Below, piece after piece: positions 12,948 to 13,385 of a stretch of DNA of 64,000 nt (position 1 is the stretch's first letter; each line of letters opens with the position of its first letter). Position numbers and translations under genes: made by a program. The notes beneath the pieces are model-generated. The model was not told the origin of the DNA and did no database searches. It was given only the letters and a program-made list of their open reading frames with translations. The stretch comes from Paludibacteraceae bacterium (GTDB lineage: Bacteria > Bacteroidota > Bacteroidia > Bacteroidales > Paludibacteraceae): contig JAFVBR010000022.1 of NCBI GenBank assembly GCA_017479885.1, positions 34,555-98,554 of the forward strand, given 5' to 3'.

Positions 12948-13028
12948 TGGTTGCGGAGGCTGGGATCGAACCAACGACCGTCAGCTGACGGATATGAGCC
13001 TGACGAGCTACCACTGCTCTACTCCGCG
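12948..13028 (-). pseudogene. aberrant initiator-tRNA(Met) copy with expanded anticodon arm
   Basis: Identical to the tRNA at 13311-13385 except that loop A becomes T and TGAA is replaced by GTCAGCTGAC (+6 nt). This breaks the TCAGG/CCTGA stem and creates the 12-nt palindrome CGTCAGCTGACG. The CAT anticodon triplet is retained. Followed by a hairpin plus T-run. Confidence 0.75.
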
Positions 13029-13267
13029 GCAATCAGACTATGTATGAAAGCTCTTCCTCTGCTTGTTTTTAGTTGTTTTTCTCTCATCATTGCCTGCTGC
13101 TTGTTATCATAGTTTTCAGAATAAATGATTCTCCATGGTTGAAAAGTTTTAGTCCAACCCTTATTGTTCGGGTGATTGTGCGCAATGATTCTGTTCTCAA
13201 TATCAGAAGTATATCCGATATAGATTTTGTTGAAGATGTCACTATATAGTACGTACACTGTGAACAT
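13019..13267 (-). CDS. small GIY-YIG nuclease-superfamily protein
   Basis: 82 aa. VYVLYS..IYIGYTSDIENRIIAHN...REKQLK (GIY-YIG, Arg and Glu elements). The last 10 nt including the TAG stop lie inside the tRNA-like sequence. Confidence 0.8.
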   Translation of the reverse strand: MFTVYVLYSDIFNKIYIGYTSDIENRIIAHNHPNNKGWTKTFQPWRIIYSENYDNKQQAMMREKQLKTSRGRAFIHSLIAAE

Positions 13268-13310
13268 AGGATATAAGTGTTACAAACAAAAAAGGAGAAT
13301 GAATCTCCTT

Positions 13311-13385
13311 TGGTTGCGGAGGCTGGGATCGAACCAACGACCTTCAGGTTATGAGCCTGACGAGCTACCACTGCTCTACTCCGCG
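13311..13385 (-). tRNA. tRNA-Met, initiator type (anticodon CAU)
   Basis: Hand-folded cloverleaf: acceptor CGCGGAG/CTCCGCA with the C1:A72 mismatch typical of bacterial initiators, anticodon loop CTCATAA, T-loop TTCGATC, CCA encoded. Confidence 0.9.

Follow-up and report, generated by a model that had tools for sequence, protein, structure and literature searches.

What is a gene for an 82-residue GIY-YIG protein doing between two copies of one initiator tRNA gene, the second of them with a rebuilt anticodon arm? The question is raised by a stretch of 64,000 nucleotides (the window) from a Paludibacteraceae bacterium (assembly GCA_017479885.1, contig JAFVBR010000022.1, positions 34,555 to 98,554). 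A sequence-only reading had seen in this locus a target duplication by a small selfish GIY-YIG element, with the second tRNA copy damaged and perhaps retained as a 3′ processing or stability element. The tie between a small, selfish-looking GIY-YIG element and a duplicated tRNA gene is supported by the analysis reported here. With a probability that we put at about 60%, the locus is a horizontally acquired, selfish mini-cassette of the Ssn type, belonging to a Bacteroidota-wide family that would spread by recombination at tRNA genes and be expressed by read-through. In 2025, the Ssn enzymes were introduced as the first nucleases that act site-specifically on single-stranded DNA (Chenal et al., Nat Commun, PMC11893778), and the cassette looks like a tRNA-riding form of these hairpin-cutting nucleases, widespread and moving horizontally in Bacteroidota.

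On the minus strand, the order is promoter, tRNA copy 1, hairpin with T-run, open reading frame (ORF), tRNA copy 2, and again hairpin with T-run; both this order and the positions first given for the parts hold on inspection of the sequence and in ARAGORN, Rfam and Pfam:

13412 to 13442, minus strand: Bacteroidetes-type promoter of tRNA-fMet (TTG, 20 nt, TACCTTTG), about 26 nt 5′ of the tRNA, read from the sequence.

13311 to 13385, minus strand: copy 1, intact initiator tRNA-fMet with CCA encoded (ARAGORN tRNA-Met(cat); Rfam RF00005, 64.4 bits).

13284 to 13311, minus strand: terminator-like hairpin and T-run between copy 1 and the ORF (AAAGGAGA-TTCAT-TCTCCTTT, 8-bp stem).

13019 to 13267, minus strand: gene for an Ssn-like single-domain GIY-YIG nuclease of 82 amino acids (Pfam PF01541, E 4.4e-15).

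12948 to 13028, minus strand: copy 2, an 81-nt tRNA-fMet remnant with the 3′ strand of the anticodon stem and the variable loop replaced (ARAGORN, Rfam, alignment to copy 1).

12976 to 12998, minus strand: putative nuclease site resembling the Ssn-related motif (SRM), with the box CTCATA followed by T-CCGTC-AGCT-GACGG-TC (family-wide motif, covariation).

12912 to 12938, minus strand: second terminator-like hairpin and T-run, 3′ of copy 2 (AAAGAGCA-TTG-CTCTTT), reported on the plus strand, the stem being palindromic.

At least nine independent conspecific metagenome contigs carry the same arrangement with 99–100% identity, so that it is neither chance nor an assembly artefact. Copy 1 is a tRNA(CAT) with the initiator C1:A72 mismatch, its minimum-energy RNA fold is the normal cloverleaf, and it is the sole initiator-type tRNA detected by whole-genome ARAGORN in the 2.8-Mb assembly (93.8% complete), the two further CAT tRNAs both being of the elongator type; without another initiator tRNA in the cell, copy 1 would be maintained by selection. 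Its end is separated by 43 nt from the ATG of the ORF, a gap in which no promoter box was seen on reading the sequence. The ORF terminates with a TAG that forms bases 8–10 of copy 2, the final 10 nt of the ORF overlapping the remnant, and the hairpin motif starts 27 nt past this stop.

The encoded protein scores 56.2 bits against the Pfam GIY-YIG model (cut-off 22.6), with the domain spanning residues 2–69, and its AlphaFold model (pLDDT 96.7) forms one compact domain with the order β-β-α-α-β-α-α. Y5, Y16, R26, H30, N31 and E63 are invariant across 26 homologues, and the protein thus possesses both the domain and the catalytic Tyr, Tyr, Arg, His/Tyr and Glu by which the GIY-YIG nuclease superfamily is defined. 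It also has the build of the Ssn family (cd10448), namely a single domain of about 90 amino acids with no extra DNA-binding domain. In structure comparison the nearest folds are the UPF0213 protein BH0048 and Slx1, ahead of I-TevI, the closest solved folds being 1ZG2 (E 6.6e-4) and Slx1 (TM 0.64–0.72 over the query); a sequence search of the PDB with the 82-residue protein returned UPF0213 proteins only, and an NCBIfam search gave nothing useful, with TIGR01453 (group I intron endonuclease) at 19.5 bits against a cut-off of 56. No residues are left past the catalytic domain for the joined sequence-specific DNA-binding domain of a homing endonuclease, nor is the gene's own target disrupted or immune, an unaltered tRNA-fMet lying only 43 nt upstream. 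The nearest homologues (62–75% amino acid identity) belong to other families, and the taxa are mixed in the protein tree.

Aligned with each other, the two tRNA copies show no difference in their first 36 or their last 28 nt; in the segment that separates these ends, ACCTGAAGGTC of copy 1 (11 nt) has become TCCGTCAGCTGACGGTC in copy 2 (17 nt, +6). The replacement creates a palindrome, CCGTCAGCTGACGG, at 12991–12978, which is perfect, as had been noted, and 14 nt long instead of the 12 nt then counted. ARAGORN reports copy 2 as 'tRNA-???' with a 2-base anticodon, and Rfam gives it 46.3 bits (versus 64.4 for copy 1), its alignment needing 8 inserted nt in the anticodon loop and leaving the stem mispaired. 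The other three arms (acceptor, D and T) are full and reappear, together with a new hairpin, in the minimum-energy RNA fold, from which the anticodon stem is absent; the fold energy is indistinguishable from that of shuffles (z −1.8). Copy 2, having neither a 5-bp anticodon stem nor a 7-nt loop within a cloverleaf, is not a functional tRNA, as had been suspected from its sequence.

Whether the altered arm is damage or design was addressed with a survey of the 80 best loci of the protein subfamily, taken from one-genome-per-species contigs and covering Bacteroidales, Chitinophagales, Sphingobacteriales, Cytophagales and Flavobacteriales plus a few metagenome-assembled genomes labelled otherwise. 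An intact same-strand tRNA lies within 250 nt upstream of 63 of the 84 gene copies with enough flank (48 Met of initiator and elongator types, 14 Val(GAC) and 1 miscalled remnant), which bears out the earlier impression that Bacteroidota often have small GIY-YIG ORFs next to their tRNAs, and most of the remaining copies are second or third copies in tandem arrays. The pattern CCGYC-N4-GRCGG follows the stop codon within 150 nt, typically at about 15 nt, in 69 of 87 cases, the consensus being the oriented motif AT-CCGYC-N4-GRCGG-AC. When hairpins in the surveyed loci were counted with the unbiased pattern CCGNC-N4-GNCGG (n = 150), the variable stem position was found to be Watson–Crick paired in 144 (108 C-G, 36 T-A, 6 other), the four central loop bases took 26 different forms, and AC directly followed the stem in at least 142. 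As the stem covaries, the loop varies and the AC flank is kept, it is a 5–6-bp hairpin with oriented flanks, not a double-stranded dyad, that is under selection.

The position of this module within the tRNA is equally regular. In Met cassettes, the hairpin replaces tRNA positions 38–48 on the sense strand (..CTCATA-T(hairpin)AC-T arm), and in tRNA-Val(GAC) cassettes it replaces the 3′ strand of the D stem and the 5′ strand of the anticodon stem (..GGTTTAG-T(hairpin)A-TGACAGG.., +6), so that the antisense strand reads CTGTCA-T(hairpin)AC. Because the Val module is inverted relative to that of Met, the two types are alike on the motif strand, each showing a stem strand, a CTNNNA anticodon loop, T, the hairpin and AC; the gap from tRNA to gene is often 13–18 nt in Val cassettes. 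Judged from these comparisons, the altered arm of copy 2 is a conserved, oriented hairpin module rather than damage: the same hairpin recurs at initiator Met, elongator Met and Val tRNAs in many families, in addition to 19 dispersed copies in the window's own genome, and the description of copy 2 as 'damaged' has to be given up. One genome from another family of the order (G046), for example, combines an intact tRNA-fMet with a GIY-YIG gene of 57% identity and a remnant reading CTCATA-T-CCGCCAGCTGGCGG-AC.

Other origins of the palindrome were considered and rejected. A P-nucleotide-like fold-back repair of the host anticodon stem is incompatible with the same hairpin replacing an unrelated stem in G046 and many others; a double-stranded dimer or restriction-type site (the palindrome contains CAGCTG) is incompatible with the central 4 nt varying without dyad symmetry while the stem covaries; and an att duplication by a tyrosine integrase is incompatible with the lack of an integrase nearby and with the altered segment lying on the wrong crossover side for attL/attR.

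The remnants themselves are rarely as complete as copy 2. Among 46 related Met-type cassettes, none has a complete tRNA 5′ half (a median of 12.5 nt is present 5′ of the hairpin), and a complete 3′ part, with no more than 2 mismatches to the resident tRNA, is present in 33. With the complete 5′ half missing in 46 of 46, most Met-type remnants are unable to fold like a tRNA, and the full-length copy 2 of the window is an exception among them. Retention of the 3′ part, and never of the 5′ part, fits a homology arm and not a tRNA-like RNA. The two closest homologues (L147 and L148, 71–75% amino acid identity) have ORFs that enter the remnant in another frame and stop at the TAG of its D-loop (..EQW*, ..QW*); in several relatives, the ORF likewise takes its terminal TAG or TAA from the remnant. 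Many loci contain [gene-remnant] units in tandem, and many have up to seven hairpin-swapped tRNA units of 80–90 nt 5′ of the intact tRNA, which end near the T arm and are fused to a copy of the promoter-proximal flank. Truncated copies and pseudogenes occur in other loci. DNA similarity to the nearest foreign cassettes stops at the ORF and tRNA, and the limits of a mobile unit cannot be drawn from it.

Some remnants carry further hairpins. In some tRNA-fMet remnants, the place of the D-loop is taken by a second palindrome, TCCCGATAGCTATCGGGA, or this palindrome lies within the T-loop, and the T-loops of remnants in other loci hold additional hairpins such as TT-CCGTCAAAAGACGG-AC; loci with TCCCGATAGCTATCGGGA or further-hairpin remnants include L052, L045 (G162:C43, C8) and L033 (G046:C69:780-900). 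One remnant can thus hold more than one hairpin type. In the closest foreign cassette, L148 (1520–1560), the terminator past the remnant is an extended hairpin on the same core, CGGTAG-CCGTCAGCTGACGG-CTACCG, followed by a T-run.

Outside the cassettes, the hairpin is also overrepresented. The window's genome contains 33 hairpins of the cassette type, where order-1 Markov simulations give 1–3; strict AT..AC flanks are present in 19 of the 33, all outside the cassette, mostly intergenic and in both orientations, and ten of these 19 are identical over 18 nt. Several dispersed hairpins lie at contig ends or beside arrays of the 11-nt CCGTCAAACAA. As to their surroundings, the flanks of dispersed copies are conserved (ACCACCGTCAAT-CCGTCAGCTGACGG-ACAAACAA), the copies often stand next to variable arrays of the 11-nt unit and just 3′ of TAnnTTTG promoter boxes, and four copies share longer flanks, with TGTAACAATG..GTCAGAATGTCAGAAT.. 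on one side and ..ACATAGCGGAGGCGCAAAGCC.. on the other. Examples of such sites in this genome (G000) are C11:210-340, C21:84821, C22:46951-47030, C46:30820-30880, C34:92905, C47:46 and C4:38824. The window itself has an 11-bp phased repeat array at 63091–63159, the period of which is the same as that of the CCGTCAAACAA arrays.

In the genus to which the window's species belongs, gene and hairpin are absent together. Among 150 other species, the strict hairpin was found in none (two have a single one-mismatch match), a close homologue of the gene in none (one has a 36% match) and a hairpin-altered tRNA copy in none, and the 29 congener fMet loci that were read directly each show a single intact tRNA-fMet with no adjoining GIY-YIG gene. 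The proposed link between the gene and the tRNA duplication is in agreement with these absences. In a sample of 401 genomes of the order, in which a close gene was defined by a profile E ≤ 1e-30 (26 genomes), the strict hairpin is present in 19 of the 26 genomes with a close gene and in 47 of the 375 without (odds ratio 19). The pattern CTCATATCCGNCAGCTGNCGG, with one mismatch allowed, is matched in 9 of the 401 genomes, and the reversed control has 0 matches. Eight CTCGTATCCGCCAGCTGGCGGA matches in G296 were not counted as cassettes, being a 100%-identical multi-copy repeat without tRNA or GIY-YIG gene; this repeat, seen at eight sites of G296:C1 (L041, L046, L050, L053–L057), is probably an insertion sequence or repeated gene that holds the same palindrome by chance.

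The 29 congener loci also bear on the flanks of the cassette. The TAnnTTTG box and its surroundings are kept 5′ of tRNA-fMet in most of them (a Bacteroidetes-type promoter lies outside the scope of the sigma-70 consensus scan made of the window), and on the question of the native terminator they are uninformative, the downstream flanks all differing. In the window, the stretch TTTTTGTTTTTATAATACTTATAT after the second terminator resembles the stretch after copy 1. Also in the window, sufB (13741–15316) comes after tRNA-Cys and is followed by nothing but a DUF2007 gene and the tRNA/cassette block; where tRNA-fMet lies with respect to sufB differs widely among congeners. A metagenome scaffold of 1.2 kb (L144) carries the identical cassette with a different flank 5′ of copy 1 (L144:1-90), resembling the tRNA-fMet leader of another species of the genus; this is probably a chimeric assembly at the conserved tRNA, and the difference may also reflect recombination at the tRNA.

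In the mechanism that we favor, the cassette would consist of an intact tRNA gene, a terminator, a GIY-YIG gene of about 80 codons and a remnant of the same tRNA with the hairpin. The remodelled anticodon arm would be the cognate site of the nuclease, with the anticodon loop (CTCATA) supplying the 5′ box, as GTCAT does in Ssn sites, and the protein is predicted to bind the hairpin in single-stranded DNA and to nick 5′ of it, inside the tRNA-derived flank. Copy 2 would accordingly be part of the element at the DNA level, combining the nuclease site with homology to the tRNA 3′ part. Most likely the cassette entered by recombination within the highly conserved tRNA, using the intact tRNA as the left arm and the 26–28-nt 3′ part of the remnant as the right arm, and homologous recombination over flanking tRNA sequence would account for both its spread between genomes and its tandem multiplication. 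Nicks at the hairpin could supply recombinogenic ends that drive tandem expansion and perhaps the spread of hairpins elsewhere; the module has also reached about 19 intergenic sites in the window's genome. Expression of the nuclease gene probably depends on read-through transcription that starts at the tRNA promoter.

Several observations weigh against this interpretation. A hydrolytic nuclease cannot itself join DNA, and the insertion chemistry is left unexplained. The strict SRM pattern HGTCWYN(0-2)YYVSBRH..., which has 14 matches in the whole genome, is not matched by the window's hairpin, the Met-type box being CTCAT instead of GTCAT and the stem being shorter. The odds ratio of 19 is inflated by the relatedness of genomes and by the cassette's own hairpin, and some genomes are rich in hairpins (77, 38 and 37 copies) without a close gene, a pattern like that of miniature inverted-repeat transposable elements (MITEs) or of NTS, the Neisseria repeat discussed below. 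Finally, no empty/filled-site polymorphism was found within the species by exact look-ups of the GIY-YIG, DUF2007 and HAD proteins in conspecific contigs: the cassette is present in every conspecific assembly, one apparent difference being a run of N and another the upstream flank on the 1.2-kb scaffold, and the ORF is 100% identical in most of these contigs.

In a bolder reading, the nuclease and its hairpin would make up a mobile element of a new kind, free of transposase and recombinase, that homes into single-stranded tRNA genes, where a permuted mimic of the nuclease's site is offered by the anticodon stem-loop. The sense strand of tRNA-Met (stem-C-TCATAA-stem) and the antisense strand of tRNA-Val(GAC) (stem-C-TGTCAA-stem) would then both imitate the site (5′ box, stem, 3′ C) in circular permutation; the enzyme would cut the anticodon stem-loop, and repair from the cassette would exchange the 3′ stem strand for the hairpin and duplicate the tRNA, letting the intact gene survive. 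Such homing, if real, would explain the choice of tRNAs, the inverted Val module and the arrays of hairpin-swapped remnants, and we keep it as an interesting though unlikely extension. A classical free-standing homing endonuclease, by contrast, would cut the double-stranded intact tRNA-fMet gene of cassette-free genomes and have the cassette copied in by repair, the hairpin being an immunity change. It would account for a gene placed exactly at a duplicated target with one copy altered at a fixed position, for the patchy distribution with mixed taxa, and for tandem [gene-remnant] repeats, which are expected from repeated invasion, and T4 SegB, a GIY-YIG endonuclease in a tRNA cluster, would provide a precedent. 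However, characterised GIY-YIG homing enzymes need a DNA-binding domain, and the window encodes a bare catalytic domain of 82 residues with an unprotected copy 1 only 43 nt away; an immunity change need not be one covarying hairpin in both Met and Val cassettes, nor be dispersed 19 times; and characterised Ssn enzymes leave double-stranded DNA uncut (PMC11893778). We regard this explanation as distinctly unlikely. That the nuclease and its dispersed hairpins form a domesticated host system regulating recombination or uptake of single-stranded DNA, with the tRNA site serving merely as a strong promoter, is suggested by the 19 mostly intergenic hairpins of the same genome, by the presence of the cassette in all conspecific assemblies sampled, by the intact catalytic residues and by the precedent of Neisseria SsnA/NTS (PMC11893778). 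Against such a role, neither gene nor hairpins were found in the 150 congeners, tandem amplification, truncated copies and pseudogenes occur elsewhere, and the cassette always comes with a tRNA remnant, which would be needless for a promoter hitch-hiker; domestication is in our judgement rather unlikely, a little less so than classical homing.

Two further explanations were weighed. In the one, put forward in the sequence-only reading, copy 2 would be a tRNA-like 3′ element of the nuclease mRNA, where cleavage by RNase P takes away the stop codon or else sets the 3′ end and makes it stable. The window's copy 2 does keep the acceptor, D and T arms, also in the predicted RNA fold, and the stop codon lies inside it, as the ORFs of several relatives also end in a TAG or TAA of the remnant. 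As a conserved feature, though, processing by RNase P fails on the 46 Met-type remnants, in which an acceptor stem is impossible for want of a complete 5′ half; moreover, in Val cassettes it is the antisense strand that bears the oriented flanks of the hairpin, dispersed intergenic copies of the hairpin occur in both orientations, the fold energies are like those of shuffles, and Ssn enzymes do not bind RNA (PMC11893778), so that an RNA-level role appears very improbable. In the other, the locus would be a relic, a once-mobile cassette now decaying, whose protein and hairpin have no current activity. The absence of presence/absence polymorphism among conspecific assemblies, the TC in place of the family's AC past the stem of the window's hairpin and the terminator between promoter and ORF would suit a relic; an intact ORF with all catalytic residues, its 100% identity in most conspecific contigs, a perfect hairpin stem and ten dispersed copies identical over 18 nt, suggesting recent spread, would not, and decay is the least probable of all the explanations considered.

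If the favored interpretation is correct, the locus and its relatives represent a large Bacteroidota branch of small GIY-YIG nucleases whose candidate hairpin site forms part of an essential tRNA gene's disabled copy. It would provide a concrete pairing of enzyme and site (an 82-residue protein and a sequence of about 30 nt), a natural example of an element that persists by riding a universally conserved gene without killing it, and a likely source of the many odd 'tRNA pseudogenes' and arrays of tRNA remnants in Bacteroidota genomes from the gut, the rumen and the environment. New Ssn specificities would also be of practical interest as tools for single-stranded DNA.

The cassette is worth comparing with other systems in which a small nuclease or transposase gene is associated with tRNA genes or with hairpin DNA. 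The biology of small single-domain GIY-YIG proteins, held to be essentially unstudied in the sequence-only reading, has in part been worked out in the 2025 study, which characterises such nucleases together with their hairpin repeats and in the main text of which tRNA is mentioned 0 times (PMC11893778); in the searchable literature on GIY-YIG proteins with tRNA genes, hairpins and Bacteroidetes, we found no description of tRNA-nested cassettes or of hairpin-swapped tRNA remnants. SsnA of Neisseria meningitidis is a single-domain GIY-YIG protein of 94 amino acids with catalytic Y6, Y17 and E64, which binds its repeat, NTS (CGTCAT followed by a palindrome and a critical C), exclusively in single-stranded DNA and cuts a few bases 5′ of the bound repeat, any loop being tolerated; the characterised Ssn enzymes neither cut double-stranded DNA nor bind RNA (PMC11893778). 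Ssn homologues are flanked by SRMs of their own, in which a 5′ GTCWY box precedes the stem-loop and a conserved C comes after the stem, and which are also dispersed in the carrier genomes, and a role in recombination or uptake of single-stranded DNA has been proposed for SsnA/NTS in Neisseria (PMC11893778). The window's protein resembles these enzymes in the spacing of Y5, Y16 and E63, in its single domain of 80–95 amino acids, in a putative site composed of a GTCAT-like 5′ box, a stem rich in GC with a free loop, and a conserved C past the stem, in the dispersal of the repeats in carrier genomes, and in its patchy distribution among relatives. In contrast to the Ssn systems, the candidate site of the window's family sits inside a tRNA-gene remnant, where it replaces one strand of the anticodon stem and the anticodon loop itself appears to act as the 5′ box; an intact copy of the same tRNA immediately precedes the gene, the window's gene is flanked by one site only, and the stem has 5–6 bp versus 7–8 bp in Ssn. 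The same genome also contains a second small GIY-YIG gene (C46:24700-25250, L002; about 115 amino acids, 36% identical, E 1.7e-8), with CGTCAT-CCTGAAC-TTG-TTTCAGG-ATC(TCGG) on either side of it in inverted orientation, about 10 copies of this type of hairpin being dispersed in the genome; this arrangement is very like the NTS design of Neisseria, with a near-textbook Ssn site. One hairpin of the latter type stands in the window at 8172–8203, inside a 168-bp element with terminal inverted repeats (8142–8309).

Likeness to other known systems is more partial. The Seg proteins of T-even phages, among them SegB, encoded in the T4 tRNA gene cluster, are also products of free-standing GIY-YIG genes beside tRNA genes, selfish, patchily distributed and thought to spread via recombination over flanking homology. 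They are proteins of about 200 amino acids or more that have a DNA-binding domain and cut double-stranded DNA, and, unlike the window's family, they are not known to be accompanied by a cognate hairpin repeat, by a target copy that is duplicated or disabled, or by dispersed repeats. IS200/IS605 elements and REP/RAYT systems likewise combine a small gene with hairpin DNA that is recognised in single-stranded form, as would be the case in the window's family, and share with it the gene-less intergenic hairpins (MITE- or REP-like) and insertion beside a short specific box. However, the window's enzyme is a hydrolytic GIY-YIG protein and not an HUH tyrosine transposase, strand transfer being impossible for it, its gene lacks a pair of left-end and right-end hairpins, and the target is a tRNA gene that is kept functional through duplication. 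Slx1 and the UPF0213 (YhbQ-type) proteins provide the nearest solved folds and have in common with the cassette the recognition of DNA structure rather than of long sequences, whereas Slx1 acts in repair on branched DNA, together with Slx4 and a RING domain, and for the UPF0213 proteins neither a partner repeat nor a link to tRNA genes is known. Of all these systems, the Ssn nucleases with their SRM repeats come closest to the cassette.

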